60,681 bases of DNA. Origin: Bacillota bacterium (GTDB lineage: Bacteria > Bacillota > Sulfobacillia > JAUYEF01). The notes beneath the pieces were generated by a model that worked only from the letters and a program-made list of their open reading frames with translations, was not told the DNA's origin and searched no databases. Shown piece after piece: positions 1,111 through 28,669 of this stretch. The stretch is from the NCBI GenBank assembly GCA_030691635.1, contig JAUYEF010000326.1, positions 1 through 60,681 on the forward strand. The letters run 5' to 3'. Position numbers and translations under genes: made by a program. Numbering within the stretch: the stretch's first letter is position 1; each line of letters begins with the position of its first letter.

Positions 1111-1959
1111 GTGATTATGCAGATGAGGGTTTCACGTAAGCGCCATAACCGGCTTTCTCTTCAACGGTATTTCAACAAGGTCATGCTCGTGGCCCGGAAC
1201 GCAGTGCGTTCTGAGACGGTGAAGTCTCTTGCCACGATCATCCTGGTGGCGGGCCTGGCAACCGCATCGTTCTACATGGGCATGTGGATCGAGCGGGGCA
1301 GGGTGAGCACGCCTCAGTCTCAGGCAGTTGAGCGGACGGCCGAGCAGCAGCCCGTGACGGAGCGCAGTGAGAATGCCCCGAAGCCCCAGACCGCCACGCC
1401 CAAACCGGCCCCGGCGCCACCTGCTCCGAAGGACGTGGCTCCGAATGCGCCCAAGGCGGGCGCCGCGACCAAGAGCAGTACCACAGCGACCAAGACCACT
1501 ACCGGAGCGGCGGCGAGTGCCACCACCGGTTCCGGCGCGACCGCGTCGGGTGCGGCTACGCGCCTGGTCATGGCCGTTCCGGTCACAGGCGACAAGATCT
1601 TCGGTTATGACTGGATGTACTCGCCGTCGTTCGGTGACTGGCGTTTCCACACGGGGATGGACCTCAAGTCGGACGTCGGGTCTCCGGTGAAGGCCGCACT
1701 CAACGGCACCGTGCTGAGCATCAAGGAAGACCCGACCAACGGGCTGACCGTCGTGCTCGACCATGGCTCGGGGCTCGTGACGGTCTATGGCGGCCTGGAC
1801 AGCCTGTGCATCAACCAGGGCGACAAGGTGGTTAAGAACCAGATCATCGGCCGCATTGGCGATCCGCCGCTGGTCGAAGCCGACCTCGGCCCGCACCTTC
1901 ACTTTGAGGTACGGAAGAACGGTTTGCCCGAAGATCCAGCCGCCTACCTGCCGAAATAG
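1111..1959 (+). CDS. spoIIQ: M23/LytM peptidase, SpoIIQ-like
   Basis: TM anchor, Pro/Ala/Thr linker, HTGMD (HxxxD) and HLHFE (HxH) motifs; directly after spoIID. Confidence 0.8.
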   Translation: MIMQMRVSRKRHNRLSLQRYFNKVMLVARNAVRSETVKSLATIILVAGLATASFYMGMWIERGRVSTPQSQAVERTAEQQPVTERSENAPKPQTATPKPAPAPPAPKDVAPNAPKAGAATKSSTTATKTTTGAAASATTGSGATASGAATRLVMAVPVTGDKIFGYDWMYSPSFGDWRFHTGMDLKSDVGSPVKAALNGTVLSIKEDPTNGLTVVLDHGSGLVTVYGGLDSLCINQGDKVVKNQIIGRIGDPPLVEADLGPHLHFEVRKNGLPEDPAAYLPK

Positions 1960-2040
1960 GAATCAGGCGAAGACAGCAGGGGCAAGTCGGGGCCAGCACG
2001 GTAGGCGGATGCGTAACTGCGTTCGCCTGGCGAACTCATA

Positions 2041-2079
2041 GCCGGCTCGTGCAGGAAGCAGCTTCGCTGCACGGCCGGC
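2041..2079. terminator. Hairpin between convergent spoIIQ and MFS genes
   Basis: GCCGGC-TC-GTGCAG...CTGCAC-G-GCCGGC inverted repeat. Confidence 0.45.
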
Positions 2080-3449
2080 TATGACTGTTGGGCAGGAGCA
2101 AGGACTTCGCTACCTGCATGCCTGGCGTCCAGTGAAAGGACGACTCCAGGCAGGCTCAGGAGTCCTGCGGCAGCCAGCGTGAAGACCGGACCAACGCGGT
2201 TTGAGGCATATCCGGCAGCGACGTTCGCCAACGGCATGAGCGCCATGGCGAGCGTGGCTCGAAACGCAAAGACCCGCCCCATCAGCTCGCTGGGCACGAA
2301 CTCCTGGTAGAGTGCGTTTGCACACGAGCCCATCACAGGGCCTGTCAAGCCGACGACGAAGCACACAGGAAGCGCCCACTCGAGAGATGGGCAGAACGCC
2401 AGGCCGACGGTACTGAGGGCGATCACCGCTATGGAAAGGGAGACCATCCGGTGCTTATGGGACAGGCGTTTCAGAGCTGCCAGGACGATGATCGCCGCCA
2501 ATGATCCCGCCGAACCGGCTGACAAGGTCAGGCCATACCCGATCATGCCCCTGCCGTAGATGTCCCTGGATATGAAAGGCATGACGACCATGCGCACTGC
2601 CGTGACCATGTTCACGAAGGTGAACGCTACGGTCAGGCTGAGAATCCACTTCCTCTGGCGGACGTACACAAGTCCCGCCCGCAGGTCCTGCCACGCCGAT
2701 TTGTTCGATGGGGTTGGTCTTGATGATGCGCGCGTGGTCGCCAGCAGCAGCGACGAAACCAGGAACGTGAGGCCGGCCAGCAGGACTGCGGGGCCGGCGC
2801 CAGCACTCTCCACCATCACACCCGCCAGAGCGGGGCCGGCCGCCGCGGCGATGTGCAAGGCCGACTGCTGCGTGGCATTGGCCCTTACGAGCACTTTCCT
2901 ATCGACAAGCGCGGGGATCAACGAGTTCAGGGCGGGATCGTAGAACGCTCTCGCCAGAGACCTCGTCGCAATGACCACGTAAATGTGCCAGACCTGCACC
3001 CTGCCCGCCATTATCACGGCAGCGAGAACCAGGTCAACGCACCCACTGACGATATCAGCCACCATGAGCACGCGCTTCCTCTCCAGCCGGTCCACCACCA
3101 CGCCGCCGAAGAGAGAAGCAAGCAGCCGCGGCAGAGTCCCAAGCGCCATGGAGAGGCCCATGGACGTGGGGGACCCGGTCATCTTGAGGATGATGAAAGC
3201 CTGCGCGATCCCGGAGAAATTCTCTCCGAACATGCTTATCGTCTGAGCGGCCCAGAGGCGGATGAACGAAGGCGGGAGCCAGGTTCTGGACGAGGCGGAC
3301 GGCGCACTGGGCGCGGCCTCTGCTGGCTCGAGCTGAAGGCGTCCGCCGGGTGGACCGGCCGCACCCTTTCCTGACAGGAAACGAAGCCGCAACCCCAAGA
3401 CCCCCAAGTACGGCGCCAGGTCACATTCCTTGTGACCATGTTGCGTCAC
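2079..3449 (-). CDS. MFS transporter (macrolide-efflux/DHA3-like); true start probably downstream of 3449
   Basis: About 12 hydrophobic segments; GVVVDRLERKRVLMVAD motif A; VPSELMGRVF. Confidence 0.9.
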   Translation of the reverse strand: MTQHGHKECDLAPYLGVLGLRLRFLSGKGAAGPPGGRLQLEPAEAAPSAPSASSRTWLPPSFIRLWAAQTISMFGENFSGIAQAFIILKMTGSPTSMGLSMALGTLPRLLASLFGGVVVDRLERKRVLMVADIVSGCVDLVLAAVIMAGRVQVWHIYVVIATRSLARAFYDPALNSLIPALVDRKVLVRANATQQSALHIAAAAGPALAGVMVESAGAGPAVLLAGLTFLVSSLLLATTRASSRPTPSNKSAWQDLRAGLVYVRQRKWILSLTVAFTFVNMVTAVRMVVMPFISRDIYGRGMIGYGLTLSAGSAGSLAAIIVLAALKRLSHKHRMVSLSIAVIALSTVGLAFCPSLEWALPVCFVVGLTGPVMGSCANALYQEFVPSELMGRVFAFRATLAMALMPLANVAAGYASNRVGPVFTLAAAGLLSLPGVVLSLDARHAGSEVLAPAQQS

Positions 3450-4119: not shown

Positions 4120-5142
4120 TTGTTCAGACTTGTGGCCGATGTGGGAGTGGATCTGGGCACTGCCACGGTGCTGATATATGTGGTGGGCAAGGGCATAGTC
4201 CTCAAAGAGCCCTCTGTTGTAGCCATAGAGCAGGACACCAAGAGGATCCTGGCCATCGGTGAAGAGGCGTGGCGGATGATCGGCAGGACACCGGGCAACA
4301 TCATCGCCATTCGCCCGTTGCGCGAAGGGGTCATCGCCGACTACGATGTAACCCAGTCTATGCTCAGGCACTTCCTTTCCAAGGTGTGTGGTCGAGGGCC
4401 GCTCGCAAGGCCTCGTATCATGATCTGCGTGCCGTCCGGTGTGACGGGCGTGGAGAGGCGTGCCGTGCTACAGGCCTGCGCCGAAGCCGGCGCTTCCGCC
4501 ACATTCCTCATTGAAGAGCCGCTCGCGGCCGCCCTCGGGGCTGGGCTGGATATCGCGCCGCCGGTCGCCAACATGGTCGTGGACATCGGCGGCGGCACCA
4601 CCGACATCGCCGTGATCTCGCTGGGCGGAGTCGTCCTCAGCGAATCCATAAGAGTCGCCGGTGACAAGTTCGACGACGCGATCATGCGGTTCGTCCGGAA
4701 AGAGCACAATGTGCTCATAGGGGAAAGAACGGCCGAGGATGTGAAAATACGGGTGGGCGCCGCGATGCCCGGCCAGAGAGACGAATCGATAGAGATACGC
4801 GGCCGGGACCTCGTCGGTGGCCTGCCGAAGACCATCAGAGTGACCTCGAGCGAGACGGCCGCAGCGATGGAGGAGTCCGTCACAGCCATCTGCGATCGGG
4901 TGAAGTCCATTCTCGAGAGGACCCCGCCCGAGCTGGCCGCCGACCTGACGGATAGGGGAATCGTGCTCACGGGTGGGGGGTCGCTGCTGTACGGCTTTGA
5001 CACGTACCTGTCCTCTGAGACTCACGTGCCCGTTCGCGTGGCAGACGATCCCGTATCATGTGTCGCCCGGGGCACTGCCCTGGCTTTCGATTTCCTGCTG
5101 AACCCCGCCAAGAAGCCCCCGGGATTTCCGATGACCACGTAA
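4120..5142 (+). CDS. mbl: Rod shape-determining protein MreB/Mbl
   Basis: DLGTA, EPSVVA, RPLREGVIADYD, DIGGGTTD, LTGGGSLL; TTG at 4120 after GGAGGAGG; follows spoIIID. Confidence 0.93.
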   Translation: MFRLVADVGVDLGTATVLIYVVGKGIVLKEPSVVAIEQDTKRILAIGEEAWRMIGRTPGNIIAIRPLREGVIADYDVTQSMLRHFLSKVCGRGPLARPRIMICVPSGVTGVERRAVLQACAEAGASATFLIEEPLAAALGAGLDIAPPVANMVVDIGGGTTDIAVISLGGVVLSESIRVAGDKFDDAIMRFVRKEHNVLIGERTAEDVKIRVGAAMPGQRDESIEIRGRDLVGGLPKTIRVTSSETAAAMEESVTAICDRVKSILERTPPELAADLTDRGIVLTGGGSLLYGFDTYLSSETHVPVRVADDPVSCVARGTALAFDFLLNPAKKPPGFPMTT

Positions 5143-5227
5143 CATATCTAAAATAACAAAGTATATTCTGAAGGATTCTGGCCTCCCGCGTAGAACACCA
5201 TCTCCACAACGCACATAGAGTCCCATC

Positions 5228-5313
5228 CCGACAAGGCAAACCCGCCGAAAGGCGGCGACGCAAAGCCACGGGTCTAAAGCCTCTCCAAGGGCCACGACCG
5301 CCGGGCTGCCGAA
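5228..5313 (+). ncRNA. c-di-GMP-I (GEMM) riboswitch
   Basis: GGCAAA-CCCGCC-GAAA-GGCGGC-GACGCAAAGCC...GGTCTAA...GGGCTGCCG, upstream of flagellar rod genes. Confidence 0.92.
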
Positions 5314-11814: not shown

Positions 11815-13470
11815 GTGAAGGAACGCAAACGCCTGCTCAACCCATACACCGGGCTTGTTCTTGCGGCCGGGCTGGTAGGCATGCTGCTCTCACTCCCAGG
11901 CTCGTGGCCGGCGGACATGGCCAGGTACCCGCTCTTCGTGCTCCTCGCCTTCTTCGCCCAGGCGGGCACCCTGTCCCTTCCTGGGACCAGCATGCGGATC
12001 ACCAGGACTTACTATGTGCTCGGACCTGCGATCTACTTTTTCGGAGCCGTTCCTGCCGCTATGCTGAATGTGATCACATATATGTGCGGCGCGGTGCTGT
12101 TCCGGAAGACAGACACTCACAGGCTGGTGTTCAACCTGGGACAGTTCGCGTTCACCACAATACTGGCCGGTAAGGCGTTCGAAGCGGTGCGGAGGGCCGC
12201 CGGGCCTGATTCGGTCGAGTCTCTCTCGCTTGCGGTCCTGGCATGCCTTGTCACGTACATAACGCTGAACCACCTGCTGGTCAACATCTACCACCTGCTG
12301 AGGGCCTCTGGTCATAGGTGGGTGGAAGGGCTCAAATTGGACCTGATCGGTTACCTCATCGACGTCCCCCTGGGTATACTGGTCGCGGCGCTGACGAGCA
12401 TGTTCGGCACCACCGGCCTGCTGTCGGCATCGCTCTTCGTGGTCACCTCTCTGCTTCTTCTCAGGACGCTTGAGAGCATGCAGCGAACAAAGCGTGACAT
12501 GCAGGTCTTCTATGAGAACGCTCTCCGCATGTCATCGCACCTCGAAGGCCCCAGCGTCTTCACAGCTCTCGTCCAGTCCATCAGGCAGGCAGTCTCGTTC
12601 GAGTTCATTATCGTGTACCTGGTGTCTGGCGCTGAAGGGACTGTCGAGCCTGCATACTGGTTGGCGCCCAGCGACTGGCACAGTGAGATCGCGCGCCTCC
12701 AGGTGGGAGAAGGGGTCGTGGGGTCAGTCATAGCCTCCGTCAAGCCGGCTCTGGTCACTGAGGCGTTGGACGTCCACTTCTACAGGGCGCCCGACCAGCC
12801 ACCATTCAGGTCGCTTGTGGCCGCTCCTCTGGTGATCAGCGGGCATGCCATCGGCGCCGTGCTTGTGGCGAGCTTCATGCGGGCGCATTTCTCACCGCAC
12901 GACATGGGCATCATCTCACTGCTCTCGGAGCAGGCGGCGATATCGTTCAGGAACGCGACAATCTACGGCCAGACGCGAGAGCAAGCGATCACCGACCCGA
13001 TGACCGGCCTTTACAATTACAGGCATTTCCTGGCCAAGTTGCATGAGGAGATCGAGCGAGCACGGCTGGCAGGGAAAGAGTTGTCCCTGCTCTACCTGGA
13101 CTGGGACGGGCTGCGCCAGATAAACAACACGTACGGGCACCCGACCGGTGACGCGGCCCTCCGGGAACTGGCCGGAATACTCAGAGGGCTTGTGCGAAGG
13201 GCCGACATTCTGGCGCGGTACGCAGGCGATGAGTTCGTGCTGCTGATGCCCTGCGCCTGCCACGAGGACGCCCTCGCCACCGCCGCACGCATAGATGAGG
13301 CGCTCGAGTCGCGAGAGCCCACACAGGAGGTCCCGGTCGAGCGCTTCAACCTGAGCATCGGGGTCGCGTCGTTCCCGGCGGACGCGCTCGACGCGGACTC
13401 GCTCGTGAGAGAGGCGGACAAGCGGATGTACGAGGCAAAGTGGCGAAAGAAGCTTGAAGGCACGGCTTAG
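11815..13470 (+). CDS. Membrane sensor-GAF-GGDEF diguanylate cyclase
   Basis: Multi-TM N-terminus, GAF (GEGVVG..SLVAAPL), TDPMTGLYN, INNTYGH..GD, RRAD I-site, RYAGDEF. Confidence 0.92.
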   Translation: MKERKRLLNPYTGLVLAAGLVGMLLSLPGSWPADMARYPLFVLLAFFAQAGTLSLPGTSMRITRTYYVLGPAIYFFGAVPAAMLNVITYMCGAVLFRKTDTHRLVFNLGQFAFTTILAGKAFEAVRRAAGPDSVESLSLAVLACLVTYITLNHLLVNIYHLLRASGHRWVEGLKLDLIGYLIDVPLGILVAALTSMFGTTGLLSASLFVVTSLLLLRTLESMQRTKRDMQVFYENALRMSSHLEGPSVFTALVQSIRQAVSFEFIIVYLVSGAEGTVEPAYWLAPSDWHSEIARLQVGEGVVGSVIASVKPALVTEALDVHFYRAPDQPPFRSLVAAPLVISGHAIGAVLVASFMRAHFSPHDMGIISLLSEQAAISFRNATIYGQTREQAITDPMTGLYNYRHFLAKLHEEIERARLAGKELSLLYLDWDGLRQINNTYGHPTGDAALRELAGILRGLVRRADILARYAGDEFVLLMPCACHEDALATAARIDEALESREPTQEVPVERFNLSIGVASFPADALDADSLVREADKRMYEAKWRKKLEGTA

Positions 13471-18810: not shown

Positions 18811-19326
18811 GTGCGGATAACTGTTCGTGGAAAGAACATGGATGTGCCCCAGGCTGTCAAGGAGTACGCAGAGAAAAAGATCGGGAAGATGGAGAAGTAC
18901 TTCGGAGGGGCCGTCACTGCTCAGGTGACGGTCAGCATCGAGAAGGAACGGCACATCGTGGAAGTCACCATGCCTCTGAACGGAATGCTCGTAAGGGGTG
19001 AGGAGAAAGCTCAGGACCTGTTCTCGGCGGTCGACCTCGTTGTTGAGAAGATAGAAAAGCAGATCGATAAGTACCGGACGCGGATGAACAATAGGAGGTC
19101 ACGGTCGTCCGTGAGGGCGAGCGGCAGCGCTAAGGAGTTCGAGGAGCTGGACGTCGTAAAGGTCAAGCATTTCCCGCTCAAGCCCATGTCCGTCGACGAA
19201 GCGATCATGCAGATGAACCTGCTCGGGCACGACTTCTTCGTGTTCCGCGACTCGGATACGGAAGCGACCGCGGTCGTGTACAAGAGGAAGGAAGGCAACT
19301 ACGGGTTGCTCGTGCCTGAGCAGTAG
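18811..19326 (+). CDS. hpf: Ribosome hibernation promoting factor (long HPF)
   Basis: ITVRGKN..YAEKKI, KPMSVDEAIMQMNLLGHDFFVF, YKRKEGNYGL. Confidence 0.97.
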   Translation: MRITVRGKNMDVPQAVKEYAEKKIGKMEKYFGGAVTAQVTVSIEKERHIVEVTMPLNGMLVRGEEKAQDLFSAVDLVVEKIEKQIDKYRTRMNNRRSRSSVRASGSAKEFEELDVVKVKHFPLKPMSVDEAIMQMNLLGHDFFVFRDSDTEATAVVYKRKEGNYGLLVPEQ

Positions 19327-19369
19327 CGCTCGTGCCTCAGCGATAGCGGAAGAAGCGTGCAGCACCGGG

Positions 19370-19398
19370 AGAAGGGCCACCATGGCCCTTCTCGTTTT
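19370..19398 (+). terminator. Rho-independent terminator
   Basis: GAGAAGGGCCA-CCA-TGGCCCTTCTC-GTTTT. Confidence 0.8.
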
Positions 19399-19449
19399 GT
19401 CCCATACCCCTGTGATATAATGCAGGTGCACACGTAGGGGGTTGGACAC

Positions 19450-20577
19450 TTGATCGACCAGAAGGTAAGTGTCGTCATCTTCGAGGGAGGCGGGGCCAAG
19501 AGTCCCATCGAGGAGACAATGGGGGAAGTACGGAAGCAAGTAACCCTCGACACGATAGAGAAATTCCGTCGCATCAGGGAGATCGACGAGATCATCCTGT
19601 GCACCAACCACGTCGACCTCGCTGAAGAAGCCGGCTCCCTCGGGGCTCAGATCGATTTCGACGACGACATCGCCGCATACCACTTCGGCACACGGTTGAC
19701 CAACCTCGTGAACGACCGGAAACTGGAGAATGTCATCTACATGGGCGGGGTCTCCGCGCCCCTGATCCGTGAGGATGAGATGGCCCAGGTCGCGATCGAC
19801 CTGAAGGAACGCAAGAATGTCGTCATAACGAACAACATCCAGTCGGCCGACCTCATAGCCTGGTCACCAGGCAAAGCGATCAACTACATAGAGCCTCCCC
19901 CAAACGATAACATCCTGGGCCTGCTGCTGCGCGGCATAGGCATGAAGCGCATGTTGATCCCGAACTCACCTCGCGTCAATTTCGACCTGGACACGCCGAC
20001 CGATATTCTGATCTATGGTTTGCAGGAAGAAGCGGGATCCCGCTCCAGGGCGGCGATCAGGGAACTCGACTGGGACGACTCGGTCGTGCGCGAGGCCGCG
20101 AAGGTCTTCGGCACCACTGAGGCGCATGTGGTGCTCACCGGCCGTGTCGGGCCTCCCGTGATGCAGTTCATCAGCATGAACCTGATCTGCCACCTGAGGG
20201 TCTACTCGGAGGAGAGGGGCATGAAAGCCCTGGGGCGCGAGGACAGGGGCGAAGTCATATCCTTCGTAGGACGCCTGATCGACCTCGCGGGCCCTGAAGG
20301 CTTCTTCAAGATCCTGGCCGAGATGTGCCAGGTGGCGTTCATCGACACGCGCGTGATCTTCGCCCATAAGAAGATCCAGCCGAGCGACTGGGACAGGTTC
20401 AACTCCGATCTTGGTCGCGCTGAGCTTGTACAGGACAAATTCGTCAAGGAATTCACCGAAGCGGCCCGGAAAGCCCCGTTCCCGGTGGTGCTCGGCGGCC
20501 ACTCGCTGATTTCCGGAGGCATCTGGCTCCTGGCTGAGGCGATCGCTGAAGAGCGAAGGAAGACCCAGGCTTACTAG
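19450..20577 (+). CDS. Conserved hypothetical protein, N-terminal nucleotidyltransferase/CofC-like fold suspected
   Basis: Well-formed 375 aa ORF with RBS; FDLDTPTD motif. Confidence 0.7.
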   Translation: MIDQKVSVVIFEGGGAKSPIEETMGEVRKQVTLDTIEKFRRIREIDEIILCTNHVDLAEEAGSLGAQIDFDDDIAAYHFGTRLTNLVNDRKLENVIYMGGVSAPLIREDEMAQVAIDLKERKNVVITNNIQSADLIAWSPGKAINYIEPPPNDNILGLLLRGIGMKRMLIPNSPRVNFDLDTPTDILIYGLQEEAGSRSRAAIRELDWDDSVVREAAKVFGTTEAHVVLTGRVGPPVMQFISMNLICHLRVYSEERGMKALGREDRGEVISFVGRLIDLAGPEGFFKILAEMCQVAFIDTRVIFAHKKIQPSDWDRFNSDLGRAELVQDKFVKEFTEAARKAPFPVVLGGHSLISGGIWLLAEAIAEERRKTQAY

Positions 20578-20731
20578 TACGAACAGGCCCCCGCTACGCA
20601 CACGCGCACGGGGGCGATTCTGTCCCACAAGATGCGACCAGCGTAGCACAATATGGCAGAATTGGGAGGAATCTAGTTCTCCTGGTCGAAACACCTACAA
20701 TGCTTAGGATCCAGATCATGGAGGACACTGG

Positions 20732-21373
20732 ATGGCTAGCTCTCGCGACGACCAGCTAGAGAAGATTGTAGGCCGGGTCAAGGATGTGCTCCGGGCTAAA
20801 GTCATCAGAGACGAAGGCGGCTCCGTCAGGGAAGTCCGGGTCCTGACGAACGAGGCAAAGAGCGTGCAGAAAATCACTCGCGATGTGGCTTCTGCCATCA
20901 GATCTCAGGGCGAAGAGGTAGACGCAGGCAGCATTCGCATTTCGCAAATGGCGAACGAGGACTGGTCTGAGATCGCGGGAGCGCGGCTCAAGCTTAAGTC
21001 GGTGTCCTTCGAGTCATCGGTGAGCGCTGCTGAGTCGAGAGTGACGCTTGTTCACGGTGACCAGGCCATATACGGTGTGGCAGCCGGGTCGGCCAGCTCA
21101 AAAGAGTCGCTCAGGATCGTCGCTCGCGCTACCCTGGAGGCAGCCAAGTCCTGCATTGATCCAAGCCCGGGCATGTTCGTCGAAGGCGTCATCGTAGCCG
21201 ACATGATCAATGCGAAGGTCGTGTTGGTCCTGGTATCCGTTTTCGGTCCGGACGGTGTTGAGTATTTGAGCGGTTCGTGTCCGGTGAGAATCGACGACAG
21301 AGATGCGACGGCACGTGCGACCCTTAGCGCCATCAACCGGAAATTTGCGCTGCTCGTAAGGGGAAATGATTGA
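20732..21373 (+). CDS. Hypothetical cytoplasmic protein, C-terminal region possibly LeuA-regulatory-domain-like
   Basis: GGAGG RBS; two repeats of beta-beta-beta-helix ending VARATLEAA / TARATLSAIN. Confidence 0.75.
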   Translation: MASSRDDQLEKIVGRVKDVLRAKVIRDEGGSVREVRVLTNEAKSVQKITRDVASAIRSQGEEVDAGSIRISQMANEDWSEIAGARLKLKSVSFESSVSAAESRVTLVHGDQAIYGVAAGSASSKESLRIVARATLEAAKSCIDPSPGMFVEGVIVADMINAKVVLVLVSVFGPDGVEYLSGSCPVRIDDRDATARATLSAINRKFALLVRGND

Positions 21374-21492
21374 TAGCGAATAGTCGATGACAAATCTTGG
21401 ACCGGCGGGCTGCAAAGCCGAGAGTGTTACAGCGGAGCGCAACCATCCCGACCTAGCGAAACCCGGGAGGTTTGCGTCACGGGGGATTGCCC

Positions 21493-21570
21493 ATGTCCCG
21501 TCTTGCGAAAGTTGTTCTCGCTCTGTTGGCTCTGGTTCTGGCCGGTGGAGCAAACATTCAGTGGGGCTAG
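21493..21570 (+). CDS. Unannotated 25-aa signal-peptide-like precursor MSRLAKVVLALLALVLAGGANIQWG
   Basis: GGGGGA RBS at 21481-21486, ATG 21493, TAG 21568-21570; basic N-region, hydrophobic core, short polar tail. Confidence 0.8.
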   Translation: MSRLAKVVLALLALVLAGGANIQWG

Positions 21571-21622
21571 TCACTAGCTAATTAACGGCCGTCGGTCCAA
21601 GTTCCCAAGAGGGTGCGCTTTC

Positions 21623-22942
21623 TTGAAATCGTTACCGCCCGCGCTACGCTTCTACGTAGTTTCAGTCATAGCAGCCGGAATCGGTCTATTAGTTGTGTTA
21701 AGGCCGGTAGTAACTTCAACTACACTGCCGGGCGTCGTTTTTTTTGTGCTTCTAGCTTTTGTGTCTGAGATGCTGCCGGTGCCCCTGCCCAACCGTGAAG
21801 CGACGATATCCGTCGGTTTTGTCGTCATCTACGCGTCGATCCTCCTCTTTGGCCCGAGGGAGGGCGCCTGGATAGCTGCGCTCGGCACGATACGGCTCAA
21901 GGACCTCAGCGGCAAGGTCAAGCCTCACATCGTGCTGTTCAACAGGGCGCTCCTGGGCATCTGCGGCGGGCTGGCCGGGCTCGTGTTTCTCTGGACAGGC
22001 GGCGTGCCCTACATCGTGGTCGGCGGCGGGCCGCTCATCCCGGCCGTGCTTGCGGGGCTTGTCTACATCACGGTCAACACGGTGCTCATGGTGGGCGTCA
22101 TGGCTCTCCAGAGCAAGGTGCCCCCGCTCCGGATGTTCCTTGAGAACTTCCGGTGGATGCTGCCCAACCTGGTGGTATACGAGCCGCTCGGCGCCATGCT
22201 CGCACAGGTGTACCTGAGACAGGGTCGACCGGCCGTCGCCCTGTTCCTTGTGCCGCTGCTGGTGGCAAGATGCTCGTTCCAGCTCTATATCAAGATGCGG
22301 ACTGCCTACGTGGAGACGATTTCCACTCTCACCGCGTCTCTCGATGCCAAGGACCCTTCGACGCTTGGCCATTCAGAACGCGTCGCCCGGTATGCGACGG
22401 AAATCGGACGGAAGATGGGGCTGGACTACCAGCAACTGGACCTGTTGCGGTACGTGGGCATCCTCCACGATATCGGCAAGATCGGTATCCGGGACGCCAT
22501 CCTGAAGAAGCCGGGGCGGTTCACCGCCGAGGAGTACGAAGAGATGAAGAAGCATCCCGGGCTGGGCGCCGGCATCATAGTCGGCATCAAGAGCCTTGGC
22601 ACAGCGTCCAGCTGGGTGCGCCATCACCATGAGAGATACGACGGCAACGGCTTCCCGGACCACCTGCAGGACGGCAACATACCCCTCGGGGCAAGGATCA
22701 TCGCCGTGGCCGATTCGCTGGATGCGATCACCTCAAAACGCGTGTACAAGCCCGCGATGGAATGGGAGACGGCTATAGCTGAGATGCAGCGGTGCTCAGG
22801 CACTCAGTTCGACCCAGAAGTCGTGCGGGTGTTTGTCAGCGTCGCCGACGCGCTCAAGCCGGACGGGCCTCCGCCTCAGGCCGCTGAGGTGGAAGGTGCG
22901 CGGCGTGAGGCCGCGGCGACGAAGGGAGGGGATGGCGCGTGA
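21623..22942 (+). CDS. Membrane-sensor HD-GYP phosphodiesterase 1
   Basis: Multi-TM N-terminus; DAKDPSTLGHSERVA, LHDIGKIG, HHHERYDGNGFP, IPLGARIIAVAD, GTQFDP. Confidence 0.93.
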   Translation: MKSLPPALRFYVVSVIAAGIGLLVVLRPVVTSTTLPGVVFFVLLAFVSEMLPVPLPNREATISVGFVVIYASILLFGPREGAWIAALGTIRLKDLSGKVKPHIVLFNRALLGICGGLAGLVFLWTGGVPYIVVGGGPLIPAVLAGLVYITVNTVLMVGVMALQSKVPPLRMFLENFRWMLPNLVVYEPLGAMLAQVYLRQGRPAVALFLVPLLVARCSFQLYIKMRTAYVETISTLTASLDAKDPSTLGHSERVARYATEIGRKMGLDYQQLDLLRYVGILHDIGKIGIRDAILKKPGRFTAEEYEEMKKHPGLGAGIIVGIKSLGTASSWVRHHHERYDGNGFPDHLQDGNIPLGARIIAVADSLDAITSKRVYKPAMEWETAIAEMQRCSGTQFDPEVVRVFVSVADALKPDGPPPQAAEVEGARREAAATKGGDGA

Positions 22943-24234
22943 AAGGCTCTCCTTCCTCGTACAGGGTGGTCGCGCCCCTGCTTTTTGTGCTGGCAGGACT
23001 GTCGGCGGCGTTTTCGCTGTTCGCTCTGACCGAAGACCTCTGGATCGGCGCCGGATTCATACTGATCACCCTTGGTGTGGCGCGGATCATACCTCTGGAC
23101 CTTCCTGGTGGGAGCCAGATCAACCTGGCGCCCGCCGTGGAAATAGCCGGCGCCCTGGCGATCGGCCCCGTAGTCTCGGCGGCGAGTTTCGTCGGACGCG
23201 GGCTCGCGCGCCTGTTCCAGAACTGGGGCCAGCAGCGGAAGATCGATCTCCACCAGCTTCTCTTCGATGTGACGGCGGAAAGCCTGGCGTCGTTCGTCGC
23301 GGGGTGGTACGCGCGGCGCGCCCTGGCAGGGACGCCGTCCGTCGCCACCATGGTGACACCGGTTGTCTGCGGGCTTGTCTACCTGACGGGACGGGAAGCG
23401 CTCGCGTCGGTCCTCAGCGCGCTGAGGTACCAGCTGAACGCCTTCGCGCTGTTCCTTCGGAGACTTGTCCATGGCGCCGGCAGGATGGCGTTACAGCTCG
23501 CCGTTGGGCTCGCGACGTACCTGATGTACAGGCTGATACCATTGACCGGCGGCACGCTGCTGGGATTTGTCGTGTTTGGACTCCTCGTCACGTACGCGGC
23601 AAAGCTGTACCTGGACATGAGGGCCATCTATTGGAGCACTCTTCTCGCGCTCATACCCGCCATTGAGGGGGAGTTCGAGTACGGTGAGGGCCATTCTAAG
23701 AGAGTGGCGACCTATGGCGCCGCGATGGCTCGGAAGCTCTTGCTGATAGAGGATGACGTGTTCGGGGTGTACGTGGGCGCTCTCGCCCACGACGTCGGCA
23801 TGGCGGGAATAGACGACAGGATAGTGAACAAGCAGGGCGCTCTCTCGGCGGAGGAATTCTCCGAGATCCAGCGTCATGTGGAGACCGGCGCAAACATCGT
23901 GCAGAAAGTGCCCTTCCTGAAGCCTGCGGTCGGTATCGTAAAGCACCACCATGAGAGGTGGGACGGCCTCGGCTATCCTGGTGGTGTCAAGGGACTGGGT
24001 ATTCCTCTCGGCGCAAGGATTGTGGCGGTAGCGGACGCGTTTGACGCCATGACGTCGAAGAGGCCCTATAGGGAGCAGCGGGGGCCTGAGGCGGCGCTGG
24101 AGGAATTGGGGAAGCACGCAGGCACGCAGTTCGATCCGGGCGTCGTCGCGGTGTTGAGGCGGGCCGTACATGAGGAGCTGAGGTGGGGCCGGGATGTTTT
24201 TGAGCGCTACTATTCTATGGATCTTAGTAGCTAA
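22939..24234 (+). CDS. Membrane-sensor HD-GYP phosphodiesterase 2
   Basis: Multi-TM N-terminus; GHSKRVA, AHDVGM, HHHERWDGLGYP, DAFDAMTSKRPYR; GTGA overlap with the upstream gene. Confidence 0.92.
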   Translation: MKGSPSSYRVVAPLLFVLAGLSAAFSLFALTEDLWIGAGFILITLGVARIIPLDLPGGSQINLAPAVEIAGALAIGPVVSAASFVGRGLARLFQNWGQQRKIDLHQLLFDVTAESLASFVAGWYARRALAGTPSVATMVTPVVCGLVYLTGREALASVLSALRYQLNAFALFLRRLVHGAGRMALQLAVGLATYLMYRLIPLTGGTLLGFVVFGLLVTYAAKLYLDMRAIYWSTLLALIPAIEGEFEYGEGHSKRVATYGAAMARKLLLIEDDVFGVYVGALAHDVGMAGIDDRIVNKQGALSAEEFSEIQRHVETGANIVQKVPFLKPAVGIVKHHHERWDGLGYPGGVKGLGIPLGARIVAVADAFDAMTSKRPYREQRGPEAALEELGKHAGTQFDPGVVAVLRRAVHEELRWGRDVFERYYSMDLSS

Positions 24235-24769
24235 GCTGTGCGGTGGCTCTTTCAGGAAACTTGCCGCCGCTGAGATCCGTGGAGTATGGATAATCTTCGC
24301 CGCACTGCTCGTGAGGTTTCTCCTTTATAGCGGCCGGTTGAAACCGGACGCGGTGACGGCGGGTGTGCTGCACACAAGCGCTTTCGTGCTTCTTCTCTTC
24401 GCGTTTGCAGCCAACTGGGACATCCACGGGATGCCAATCGCGGCGAGTGGCTCGCTGCTGAACGCCACCGCTGTCGCTGCGAACGGGGGCAGGATGCCGG
24501 TCGGGCGAATGGCGCTGGAAGTGGTCGGGCTGTGGGAAACGACGGGGAAAGCTCTTGCCGCCGGCCAGAGCATGACACATGTGCTTGCGGAGAACTCGGG
24601 TAACCTGGCGTTCCTCGGCGATTGCCTGTGGCTGAAATTGCCCTGGGGGATGCCGAGCATATACAGCATAGGTGATGTGCTGCTCATGATCGGGATGTTC
24701 TTCGCGATCATGGAGCTGATGGGAGTCAGCCTGCGGCTCAGGCCGGTCGAACGCAGGCGCGCAGGTTGA
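24194..24769 (+). CDS. DUF5317-like membrane protein
   Basis: GGSFRKL, LN..AVAANGGRMPV, H......LAFLGD, YSIGDVL motifs recalled for this family. Confidence 0.8.
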   Translation: MFLSATILWILVAKLCGGSFRKLAAAEIRGVWIIFAALLVRFLLYSGRLKPDAVTAGVLHTSAFVLLLFAFAANWDIHGMPIAASGSLLNATAVAANGGRMPVGRMALEVVGLWETTGKALAAGQSMTHVLAENSGNLAFLGDCLWLKLPWGMPSIYSIGDVLLMIGMFFAIMELMGVSLRLRPVERRRAG

Positions 24770-24794
24770 ACGTAGCCGCGCAAACTGGTAGAAT
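24766..24794 (+). promoter_or_regulatory. Sigma-A promoter of secA
   Basis: TTGAAC-N17-TAGAAT with extended TG; followed by hairpin GAGGAACC/GGTTCCTC (24807-24828). Confidence 0.6.
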
Positions 24795-24869
24795 CAGAAC
24801 GTCGAGGAGGAACCGCGTGAGGTTCCTCTAACTTTCTACCCGCGTCTTTTTCCTAGGAGCTGGACCGTT

Positions 24870-27521
24870 TTGAAGGTCTTGTCGAGGCTGTTCGATCAGA
24901 ACGAGCGGGATGTCGCGCGACTGCGTCGCACGGTTGATGTCATCAACTCGCTCGAGCCCGGATACAAGGCCATGAGCGATGACGGGCTACAGGCTAAGAC
25001 GGCCGAATTCCATCAGCGCCTGGCGAACGGGCAGAAGATGGAGGACATCCTGCCACATGCCTATGCGCTGGTGCGGGAGGCCGCCCGGAGGCTGCTTGAC
25101 CAAAGGGCCTTTGACGTGCAGGTCATGGGCGGCATAGTGCTTCACGAAGGCCGCATCGTCGAGATGAAGACCGGCGAAGGAAAGACGCTCGCGTCCACGA
25201 TGCCCGCGTACCTGAACGCCCTCGGTGGAAGAGGCGTGCACGTCGTCACAGTGAACGATTACCTCGCCAAACGAGACAGTGAGTGGATGGGCCAGATATA
25301 CAGGTTCTTGGGGCTCAAGGTCGGCCTCATCCTGAACGGGATGGACACCGGCACGCGAAAACAGTCCTACCTCGCGGATATCACCTACGGCACGAACAAC
25401 GAGTTCGGGTTCGACTACCTCAGGGACAACATGGTCGGCGTCGCGGACGAAAGGGTGCAGCGGGAACTCAACTTCGCCATAGTGGACGAAGTGGACAGTA
25501 TCCTCATAGACGAGGCAAGGACCCCACTCATAATCTCCGGAGCCGTGGAGAAGTCCACGGAGATGTACCACAGGTTTGCGCGGCTCGTGCAGACGATGCG
25601 CGAGGAGCAGGACTACACGATGGACGAGAAGGCGCACACGGTGACGCCGGCCGAAGGGGCGGACCTAAAGGTTGAAAAGGCCCTGAACGTCGACCTCTCC
25701 ACGCCAGAAGGGCTGGAGCTCAGGAGCTACTTCTCACAGGCGCTGAAGGCGAAGGCGCTCATGAGGCGCGACCGGGATTATGTGGTCAAAGACGGGCAAG
25801 TGCTTATCGTGGACGAGTTCACCGGACGGCTGATGCACGGCAGGAGATATTCCGACGGCCTGCATGAGGCGATTGAGGCCAAGGAAGGGCTCCGCATCGA
25901 GCAGCAGAGTCAGACGCTTGCCACGATAACGCTCCAGAACTACTTCAGGATGTACAAGAAGCTCGCGGGGATGACCGGCACCGCGCAGACCGAGGAAGAA
26001 GAGCTGACAAAGATATACGGCACCGACGTCGTGGTCATCCCGACGAACCTGCCGATGATCAGGAAAGACTCCCCGGACGTCGTCTACAAGACCGAACGCG
26101 GCAAGTTCCGCGCTGTCATACAAGAGATCATCGAGAGGCATGTCACCGGGCAACCGCTGCTCGTGGGCACGATCTCCATCGAGAAGTCCGAGATCCTGTC
26201 CCGGATGCTGCGCGAAAAGGGCATCGATCACCAGGTCCTGAACGCGAAGTACCACGAAAAAGAGGCCGAGATCGTTGCGCAGGCTGGGCGGGTTGGGACC
26301 GCGACCATCGCCACGAACATGGCCGGCAGGGGAACCGACATCATGCTCGGCGGGAACCCCAGCTTCATGGCACGAGAGAAGATGAAGCAGGAGGAGTTCC
26401 TGGAGTGGGTGATCGCCGAGGCGGCGGAGCAGATTCCCACGACTGATGCAGAAGTCGTGAGGGCTCGCCAAAGGTACAAGCAGCTCTTCGATGAGTACAA
26501 GAAGCAGACGGACGAAGAGCACCAGAAAGTCGTCGGCCTGGGCGGGCTCCAGATAATCGGGACGGAAAGGCATGAGGCCAGGCGCATCGACAACCAGCTC
26601 CGCGGCCGTTCAGGCCGGCAGGGCGATCCGGGCTCTTCGAGGTTCTACATCGCGCTGCAGGATGACCTGATGAGGCTCTTCGGCGCGGACATGGTCTCCG
26701 GCTTCATGGATAAGCTGGGCCTCTCAGAAGATGAGCCCATCGAGCATGCCCTGCTGTCCCGGGCCATCGAGAATGCGCAGAAACGGGTGGAGGCCAGGAA
26801 CTTCAGCATCCGCAAGTCGGTCCTCGAGTACGACGATGTGATGAACCGGCAGAGGGAGGTCATCTACGGCCAGCGCAACAAGGTGCTGCTGGGCGGTGAC
26901 TTGCGGGAGTCCATCCGGGAGATGATTTCCAATGTCGTGGAGCATATCGTCGGGATCTACGCGCCGCCATCTGTCCACCACGCCGACTGGGACCTCCAGG
27001 GTCTGGTCACATACGCTGAGTCCGAGTTCTTCCCTGAGGGGTTCGTCGATGCTGAAAGCCTCAGAGGCAAGGACCGCAACGAAATGGCCGGTAGGCTGCG
27101 TGAGGCCGCGTCGCAGGCATACGAGCGGCGTGAGGAGCAGATCGGCGGCAACATCCTGCGTGAGATCGAAAGGCTTGTGCTGCTACGAGTGGTTGACATA
27201 AAATGGATGGAGCACCTCAAGAACATGGACGACTTGAGGGAAGGCATTTCCCTCCGGGCCTACGGGCAGCGCGACCCGCTGATCGAGTACACGCGCGAAG
27301 CGTTTGAGATGTTTGATGCGATGATAGACAGCATCCAGCATGATACTGTACGGTACCTGTACCGCGTACAGCTCGCGCCGGAAGTCAAGAAGCCCGTGGC
27401 GAGGCTGGTCGCGACAGGGCCGAGGCAGCCCGCAAGCGGCAAGAGGAAGATCGGGAGGAACGCCCCGTGCCCTTGCGGAAGCGGCAAGAAATACAAGCAT
27501 TGCTGCGGGAGAAACCTCTAG
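24870..27521 (+). CDS. secA: Preprotein translocase SecA
   Basis: [67 protein letters not shown]. Confidence 0.99.
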
Positions 27522-27534
27522 GGGGGGGTTGTGC

Positions 27535-28669
27535 ATGTTTGAGGAGATGAGACAGAAGGCCGAGTATTCATGGGCGAAAGTCGAAGAGCTCAGGAGGTCT
27601 CTTTGACGTAGCGGCCCGGGCGGCCAGGGTTTCGGAACTGGAAACCCGGATGGCTGCTCCAGACTTTTGGAACGACCCTGAAGAAGCAAAGAAACTGGTG
27701 AAGAACCTCACTGAGGTCAAGCGGCCGCTCGACAAAGTCCAGGGCCTTGAGGCGAGAGCCAGAGACGCCCGCGAGATGCTCGACCTGATAGAGGCTGAGT
27801 CGGACCTCGAGCTTGCCGGCGAGCTCGAGCGCGAGATAGATGAGCTCGAAGCGGACCTGAAGGAGTTCGAACTGCTGGTCCTGCTGAGCGGCAAGTATGA
27901 CTCGCGAGCCGCGATCGTCTCGCTACATGCAGGCGCCGGCGGCACCGACGCGCAGGACTGGGTCGAGATCTTGCTCAGGATGTACACAAGATGGGCGGAG
28001 CGCCACGGTTTTGCGACGGACCTGCTGGACAGCCTCCCCGGCGAAGAGGCGGGGCTGAAGAGCGTGACCATCGGCGTCAAGGGCGAGTACGCATATGGCT
28101 TCCTGAAATCGGAGAAAGGTGTGCACCGCCTTGTGCGGATTTCGCCTTTCGACGCGTCGAGCCGCAGGCACACATCGTTTGCGTCGGTCGAGGTGCTGCC
28201 TGAAATCGAGGAAGACAACGACATAGAGATCAAACCTGAGGACCTGAGAATCGACACGTACAGGTCGAGCGGGGCCGGCGGGCAGCATGTCAACAAAACG
28301 GACTCGGCTGTCCGGATAACGCACATTCCAACCGGAGTCGTGGTTGCGTGCCAGAATGAACGGTCGCAGCACGCGAACAAGGAAACGGCGATGAGGATCG
28401 TGAAAGCGCGTCTCGCAGATCTTAGGGAGCAGGAGCGGGAAAAGGAGATCGCATCCTTGCGCGGAGCGTACCAGGAGATCGCCTGGGGCAGCCAGATCAG
28501 GTCGTACGTGTTCCAGCCGTACAGCCTGGTGAAAGACCACAGGACAGGCGTTGAGGAAGGAAACGTCCAGGCAGTCATGGACGGGGACATAGACCAGTTC
28601 ATCCAGGCGTCGCTCAGGGAACACTTGCAGAAAAACGGACACGGCCGGTTGCACGAGGTTTCACCATGA
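27535..28669 (+). CDS. prfB: Peptide chain release factor 2, programmed +1 frameshift at CTT-TGA-C (27601-27607)
   Basis: ATG 27535; internal SD AGGAGG 27592-27597 then CTTTGAC; +1 frame has SPF and GGQ motifs. Confidence 0.98.

Follow-up and report, generated by a model that had tools for sequence, protein, structure and literature searches.

A DUF5317 membrane protein with an LspA-like aspartate pair, encoded beside a 25-codon gene and MASE9-HD-GYP phosphodiesterases, as a candidate outer-leaflet peptidase

DUF5317 (Pfam PF17248) is a large family of membrane proteins without an assigned function; an exhaustive HMMER search yields 1861 cluster representatives at E <= 0.001. One member, of 191 residues, is encoded on the + strand at 24194..24769 of contig JAUYEF010000326.1 from a Bacillota bacterium (assembly GCA_030691635.1), a stretch of 60,681 nucleotides (nt) referred to below as the window. 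The results presented here reveal that its gene belongs to a conserved trio, together with a 25-codon peptide gene and one or more genes for HD-GYP phosphodiesterases that carry the sensor domain MASE9, and that DUF5317 contains two invariant aspartates within a local motif like that of the lipoprotein signal peptidase LspA. It is possible, and is the reading tentatively preferred here, that DUF5317 is a new outer-leaflet aspartyl peptidase, LspA-like in action but not LspA, that acts on the co-encoded peptide. A role as a non-catalytic partner is nearly as likely.

Results

The open reading frame (ORF) at 24194..24769 matches the Pfam DUF5317 profile over positions 3-151 of 151 (E 1.4e-30; 106.8 bits, where the cut-off is 25), and no NCBIfam model matches its product. 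The source genome has a single DUF5317 copy. An earlier note, made from the letters of this DNA, had pointed to several short motifs in a small multi-transmembrane protein. All of them are present in this protein, and they make up the conserved core of the family. Helix 4 contains GSLLN (residues 86-90, nt 24449-24463) and ends on the outer side with NGGRMPV (residues 97-103, nt 24482-24502), such that the conserved motifs G86-x3-N90 and N97-G-G-x-M-P102-V span 24449..24502. FLGD (residues 140-143, 24611..24622) places the first invariant aspartate, D143 (GAT, 24620-24622), at the start of a beta-strand in an insert on the outside. The second, D161 (GAT, 24674-24676), lies in PSIYSIGDVLLMIG (residues 154-167, 24653..24694), which has the family form P-x-x-[FY]-S158-x-G160-D161-x5-G167 and is located at the outer start of helix 5. 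All of these motifs are on the + strand.

Conservation was assessed with an alignment of 137 homologues of 165-215 residues, picked from 154 fetched proteins, with a mean column identity of 28%. G86, N90, P102, D143, S158, G160 and D161 are identical in 137/137 sequences, and G18, N74, N97, G99, M101, L141 (131/137) and G167 (136/137) are conserved in at least 90%. A tiny residue usually precedes the first aspartate and always precedes the second. The earlier note had allowed that the two aspartates might prove unconserved; both are among the seven invariant residues. Seven invariant positions of this kind at so low a mean identity are the pattern expected of an active site.

An AlphaFold2 model built from the 137-row alignment (predicted local distance difference test, pLDDT, 95.1; predicted template modelling score 0.88) has five long helices, at residues 2-15, 31-46, 53-72, 80-96 and 159-175. 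Helices 4 and 5 are separated by an insert of roughly 60 residues that folds into two short helices plus short strands. In a separate model of residues 78-191 (41-row alignment, pLDDT 91.9), strands 143-147 and 155-158 directly precede helix 5; if paired as a hairpin, they would put D143 opposite approximately residue 159, close to D161. DUF5317 is predicted to have five transmembrane helices with the N-terminus outside and the C-terminus inside. Lysine and arginine are concentrated in loops 1 and 3 and in the C-tail (family means of 3.56, 1.24 and 3.21, compared to 0.70 in loop 2), which indicates this orientation by the positive-inside rule. The termini of major facilitator superfamily (MFS) transporters are cytoplasmic, and DUF5317 is fused N-terminally to an MFS transporter in all eight of the longer homologues found, as well as in P0141 and P0150. 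The fusions are thus independent support for a C-terminus inside. This topology places both aspartates outside, D143 within the insert and D161 where helix 5 begins.

LspA, as described in the part of PMC6952399 drawn on here, has four helices plus a beta-cradle and a catalytic dyad that faces the outer side, and its signal-peptide substrate is believed to be held in the membrane as a helix, the scissile bond adjacent to the catalytic aspartates. Thirty LspA sequences, from the source genome and from 29 others in the phylum, were aligned. Of the 14 conserved residues that the same part lists for Staphylococcus aureus LspA, 13 are among the invariant positions of this alignment, and the catalytic dyad corresponds to D122 and D136 of the source-genome protein. 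The alignment also shows A60, G109 and G142, with F132 at the position where the same list has phenylalanine.

Comparison of the DUF5317 and LspA profiles with hhalign produced a single local match, 41-48 columns long, with a probability of 25.6-40% and a score of 30.5. The match pairs L141-x-D143 (V/L-x-D in the family) with V120-x-D122 of LspA, and [FY]157-S158-x-G160-D161-x5-G167 with F132-N133-x-A135-D136-x5-G142. Agreement extends to the flanks, with a hydrophobic residue two positions before the first aspartate, an aromatic, a small polar, any and a tiny residue before the second, and a glycine six positions after it. The shared pattern is [VL]-x-D ... [FY]-[NS]-x-[AG]-D-x5-G, and both families have a G-x3-N motif in the preceding helix. 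As in LspA, both invariant aspartates would be close to the outer face of the membrane, with the second where the last transmembrane helix begins, an equivalence that carries an alignment probability of only 25-40%.

The controls set this match apart. Reversed profiles scored 19.4 and 21.7, and 80 local column shuffles of the LspA alignment gave a mean of 14.4 (standard deviation 3.4, maximum 26.5), with 0/80 reaching 30.5. Under identical settings LspA scored 29.6, versus 13.6 for the prepilin-type aspartyl peptidases of family A24 (PF01478, 25 sequences), 12.8 for AgrB (PF04647, 27 sequences) and 11.3 for rhomboid; the hhalign probability was 0.2% for both A24 and AgrB. Local hmmsearch runs in both directions always aligned the same segment of the two families. 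When the 137 members were compared with 24,736 Pfam models, Peptidase_A8 was the commonest non-self weak match, albeit for only four members and with a best E of 0.036. Judged by sequence, the local resemblance is real and specific, yet below any homology threshold.

The DUF5317 gene has recurrent neighbors. A set of 40 loci, one per genome, was drawn from the 72 genomes positive for DUF5317, and the two genes upstream and the one downstream were scanned (119 of 120 proteins, one being dropped for size). A gene with an HD_5 (HD-GYP) domain adjoins DUF5317 in 33/40 loci, and a MASE9 match in an uncalled gap makes L053 a 34th. In the window, two such genes precede DUF5317 on the + strand. The first (21623..22942) encodes a membrane HD-GYP phosphodiesterase of 439 residues with a MASE9-like N-terminal membrane domain followed by HD_5 (Pfam E 1.2e-5 and 6.1e-34, respectively), and the second (22939..24234) encodes a tandem paralogue of 431 residues (HD_5 E 7.9e-36). 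The two overlap by 4 nt, and the end of the second extends 41 nt into DUF5317, overlaps that suggest coupled expression. The same tandem duplication occurs in L056 and L059, where the small ORF described next lies upstream of the first copy only.

The gap of 200-350 nt that precedes the HD-GYP gene contains a conserved small ORF, here termed the mini-ORF. In the window it is a previously unannotated 25-codon gene on the + strand at 21493..21570, MSRLAKVVLALLALVLAGGANIQWG, with GGGGGA 6 nt before its ATG. A G-rich, Shine-Dalgarno-like run is seen by eye upstream of most of the 28 mini-ORFs listed. The product of the window gene has a basic N-terminus, one hydrophobic helix, a cluster of small residues (AGGA) and a short aromatic tail, and the consensus of the 28 sequences is M..K.L.AL.AL.LAGGA...W. 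The mini-ORF profile was run over 13,081 stop-to-stop segments, taken from the 40 loci plus the window, at E <= 1e-4. It matched 33/40 DUF5317 loci, six of them outside the training set, and all on the DUF5317 strand; the next-best E was above 1. In the window it matched exactly one site, the 25-codon gene (E 2.3e-11). The mini-ORF is always just upstream of the phosphodiesterase gene, and where DUF5317 comes before the HD-GYP gene (L039, L042, L064 and L067) it lies between the two. L067 has tandem mini-ORFs (5071..5145 and 5239..5313) with identical tails, between DUF5317 and an HD-GYP-GAF-GGDEF gene. Twenty-seven of the 28 aligned mini-proteins lack cysteine, and the single cysteine, in L063, is inside the hydrophobic helix; the mini-proteins are therefore not lipoprotein precursors.

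The mini-ORF is tied to DUF5317 and not to MASE9 as such. Among 201 sampled genomes, 58 have both DUF5317 and MASE9, 14 have DUF5317 only, 15 have MASE9 only and 114 have neither, counts that include related and hence non-independent genomes. Seventeen MASE9 loci come from the 15 genomes where no DUF5317 was found, and only one of these loci has a mini-ORF, compared to 33 of the 40 DUF5317 loci. Five of the 17 encode MASE9-HD-GYP proteins (one with the mini-ORF), and 12 encode MASE9-GGDEF, MASE9-GAF-GGDEF or, in one case, MASE9-GAF. The exception, L164, comes from a genome that is 94% complete, and a congener has DUF5317 elsewhere. In calling DUF5317 a possible peptide maturase, the earlier note had assumed a precursor peptide. 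A candidate precursor gene does exist in the neighborhood, and its presence co-varies with that of DUF5317. The window also encodes a third MASE9-like protein (11815..13470), a MASE9-GAF-GGDEF protein of the diguanylate cyclase type, with no mini-ORF match nearby.

A complex prediction with DUF5317 and the mini-protein, the latter in a 32-residue TTG-start form and both chains given as alignments, scored 0.45, while the best of three controls scored 0.00. At least 80% of contacts are shared between the runs, and the partner pLDDT is 60-65. Of 80 solved complexes 58 pass the mark used, as do two of 110 mismatched pairs; passes at 0.60 or under comprise only seven of the 80 solved complexes, together with both of the mismatches. 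The prediction weakly suggests that DUF5317 and the mini-protein may be in direct contact.

Discussion

Taken together, the aspartate pair, its LspA-like context, the outer-leaflet position and a co-inherited mini-protein that is N-in and signal-peptide-like and has small residues at a matching depth in the membrane make a coherent case for a peptidase. The conserved site would consist of D143, D161, S158, N90 and N97, placed at the outer-leaflet boundary of helix 4, the outside insert and helix 5. DUF5317 would take the 25-residue, signal-peptide-like mini-protein, with its N-terminus in and its tail out, sideways from the membrane. Cleavage at or near the AGGA cluster would then release or trim an aromatic tail of 4-8 residues. 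Either this product or the loss of the uncut peptide could set the activity of the neighboring MASE9-HD-GYP phosphodiesterases, which act on cyclic di-GMP (c-di-GMP). Like the substrates of LspA, the candidate substrate is helical, N-in and signal-peptide-like, with small residues at the end of the helix. A fuller version is quite unlikely as a whole: DUF5317 would be a new aspartyl peptidase family, convergent with LspA or its very distant kin, that cuts a cysteine-free, lipobox-like mini-protein; the resulting aromatic peptide would be sensed by the membrane-embedded MASE9 and switch c-di-GMP hydrolysis; and the system would be widespread in Bacillota and coupled to export in the MFS-fused forms.

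Several observations weigh against a peptidase, beginning with the relationship to LspA. In Pfam, no A8 match to the window protein is found at E <= 1. The hhalign probability is low for a match that covers about 45 columns, the last ~45 residues, with a hydrophobic helix included. The earlier note had drawn a parallel running from asparagine through the first aspartate to the second. The two aspartates and their flanks were recovered by hhalign, but the asparagine adds no score: N90 aligns with N110 of LspA when the insert of ~45 residues is excised, at a score of 25.5 versus 26.2 unexcised, and this correspondence is not counted as evidence. Six of the 14 conserved LspA residues (D25, K29, N56, G58, D113 and R114) have no aligned or invariant counterpart in DUF5317; in terms of the list in PMC6952399, as far as that part of the paper goes, they comprise the helix-1 D/K pair, the N/G pair in the beta-cradle and the D-R that follows G-x3-N. 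Further, no LspA chain is among the matches listed in five fold-search listings, although absence from such a list does not exclude the family. Foldseek, one of the checks proposed in the earlier note, returned 0 PDB matches at E <= 0.001 for the whole model and for residues 78-191, and a second look at its 83 chains contained no LspA. VIA-align, over 48,161 chains, has no LspA among the best 50 rows for either the whole model or the C-terminal part. Its best Z scores, 8.0 for the whole model (NuoJ, 69 residues) and 4.0 for the C-terminal part, are generic helical matches. Searches of PDB sequences gave 0 matches at E <= 10, both by phmmer with the protein and by hmmsearch with the family profile, and the ESM Atlas, which has no model of this protein, gave no usable match once DUF5317 clusters were excluded. 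The absence of LspA from the fold searches does not show that the folds differ.

The mini-protein and its predicted complex add to the points on this side. The mini-proteins of L039, L042, L064 and L067 have other small residues in place of AGGA, so there is no universal cleavage motif, and 7/40 DUF5317 loci have no detectable mini-ORF nearby. The complex score of 0.45 falls in a range in which passing predictions are wrong more often than right, unless the guess is likely beforehand. Among small single-pass proteins of bacteria, stable subunits or regulators are commoner than precursors.

That DUF5317 is a true, divergent LspA paralogue of family A8 that processes lipoproteins is close to refuted. 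What speaks for it is the local motif similarity only. The source genome has its own lspA (PF01252, 130.2 bits), and LspA is present in 41/41 sampled genomes of the phylum, whereas DUF5317 is an accessory gene found in only 72/201. DUF5317 is modeled with five helices instead of four and with no sheet or beta-cradle between helices 1 and 2, unlike the four helices plus cradle described for LspA in the cited part of PMC6952399; it also has the ~45-residue insert between the asparagine helix and the first aspartate. The candidate substrate, moreover, has no lipobox cysteine, and mini-proteins without cysteine cannot carry the diacylglyceryl-cysteine that LspA needs. By sequence, DUF5317 is outside peptidase family A8. 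Of the resemblance to LspA claimed earlier, the local motif stands, but A8 membership does not, and in the model the helix count and the N-terminal half are different.

A more serious alternative, doubtful when taken by itself, is that DUF5317 is a non-catalytic partner (a co-sensor, scaffold or chaperone) in a stable complex with the intact mini-protein and MASE9, and that the cluster of aspartate, asparagine and serine binds a cation or polar ligand. The conservation of the trio, with an HD-GYP or MASE9 gene adjacent in 34 of the 40 loci, would suit such a complex, as would the gene overlaps in the window. L072 (G141:C20) is relevant here: at 1324..3256 a mini-ORF is followed by one ORF of 600 residues that joins MASE9-HD-GYP to a complete DUF5317. 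This ORF, either a natural fusion or the result of a lost stop codon, was not used as evidence of fusion: it comes from one genome, the genes normally overlap, and it puts helix 1 right after a cytoplasmic domain, contrary to the charge-based topology, such that it may be a sequencing artefact. An intramembrane ligand for MASE9 has been proposed by the authors who defined the domain (bioRxiv 10.1101/2021.11.05.467447, the passages on MASE9). The AGGA cluster and the tryptophan-rich tail may equally serve helix packing and interface anchoring, and the complex score of 0.45, against 0.00 for the best control, is equally compatible with a stable partner. Against this alternative, seven invariant residues including two aspartates, across 137 sequences at 28% identity, would be unusual for a scaffold, and the specific match to the catalytic segment of LspA is left unexplained. 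DUF5317 is also found fused to MFS transporters and, in six loci (L038, L041, L044, L045, L070 and L071), without an adjacent HD-GYP gene. The data do not separate a substrate from a stable partner.

It is unlikely, but merits consideration, that DUF5317 acts on a target other than a peptide, either as an outer-leaflet hydrolase or transferase of lipids or envelope precursors, or as a module that conducts or senses an ion or small molecule, with the mini-protein as a regulatory subunit. The recurrent N-terminal fusion to MFS transporters, which are of the efflux type, is in keeping with this, although processing and export of a peptide would account for the fusion equally well. Some loci have a different setting. 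In L071, DUF5317 overlaps the start of cdaA, the gene for the c-di-AMP synthase CdaA, and in L038, L041, L044 and L045 glutamate dehydrogenase is encoded upstream and a plain HD protein of 220 residues downstream, with no mini-ORF nearby. L070 has neither of these settings. Small complex I or Mrp antiporter subunits (NuoJ, ND4L and Mrp types) account for 13 of the best 50 fold rows, aligned to helices 2-4 (model residues 25-126) with Z 6.6-8.0, a level common for helical bundles. These matches are in the noise range and cover three helices only. Furthermore, the mini-ORF closely tracks DUF5317, and no transporter or lipid-enzyme family is commoner than Peptidase_A8 among the weak Pfam matches.

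The peptidase reading invites comparison with known peptide systems. AgrB is a cysteine peptidase that forms a thiolactone. The earlier note had called DUF5317 functionally analogous to AgrB; the hhalign comparison gives no sequence relation, and the likeness is one of layout. The 25 Pfam families listed, of 82 matched, for the 137 DUF5317 members do not include AgrB, nor was it found in the source genome at E <= 1e-10. As in AgrB-AgrD, though in concept only, the gene for a small polytopic membrane protein adjoins those for a short precursor peptide and a membrane receptor; the would-be receptor at the DUF5317 locus, however, is a c-di-GMP phosphodiesterase and not a histidine kinase. Small single-pass proteins of the membrane are known to regulate sensors or enzymes there, as MgrB does PhoQ, and short hydrophobic pheromones are cut by membrane proteases, as in SHP/Rgg with Eep and in the enterococcal pheromones derived from lipoprotein signal peptides. 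The 25-codon gene resembles the genes for MgrB- and SHP-type proteins in its size, hydrophobic helix, unannotated status and place beside a presumed target. Unlike SHP/Rgg, the DUF5317 module shows no Rgg-type receptor, and an oligopeptide-transporter gene is adjacent in only 3/40 loci (L060, L063 and L067). These genes, of the Opp-type ATP-binding cassette transporters, are directly beside DUF5317 and may be there by chance.

Galperin and Chou defined MASE9 and proposed that it senses a ligand within the membrane; in the passages of their description concerned with MASE9, 7TM and DUF (bioRxiv 10.1101/2021.11.05.467447), neither DUF5317 nor a mini-protein gene is named. Both genes upstream of DUF5317 in the window encode MASE9-HD-GYP phosphodiesterases of their type. 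A full-text literature search for DUF5317 and PF17248 found no paper naming the family, and none was found with both 'signal peptidase II' and 'HD-GYP'. If DUF5317 does cut the mini-protein, a function would be provided for a new membrane-protease family and for an overlooked class of 25-codon genes, along with a candidate ligand for c-di-GMP phosphodiesterases of the MASE9 type. If the product is sensed by MASE9, a peptide signal would be wired directly to a second messenger. Should the aspartate pair bind a ligand instead, the module would still supply the first candidate partners for MASE9.

Additional features of the window

The gene order on the + strand is hpf (18811..19326), a 375-residue gene (19450..20577), a 213-residue gene (20732..21373), the 25-codon gene, the two MASE9-like HD-GYP genes, DUF5317, secA and prfB. 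The 375- and 213-residue gene products have no Pfam family at E <= 1, and NCBIfam gave one chance-level match (E 0.075, 12.7 bits versus a cut-off of 261). A gene of approximately 200-245 residues without a Pfam family is located two genes upstream of DUF5317 in about 21/40 loci and may belong to the module. Downstream, secA follows DUF5317 in 18 of the 39 downstream genes scanned.

Rfam gave 0 matches at E <= 1 over 19000-25000, and no known riboswitch or leader was found there. A scan of 20500-24900 for promoters and terminators gave nothing decisive. The stretch 24766..24794, which starts at the DUF5317 stop codon and lies ahead of secA, resembles a promoter (TTGAAC, 17 nt, TAGAAT, with an upstream TG). 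Finally, prfB is divided between two ORFs in different frames (27340..27606 and 27650..28669), the first of which stops after ...LRRSL, an arrangement that looks like the well-known programmed +1 frameshift of release factor 2.

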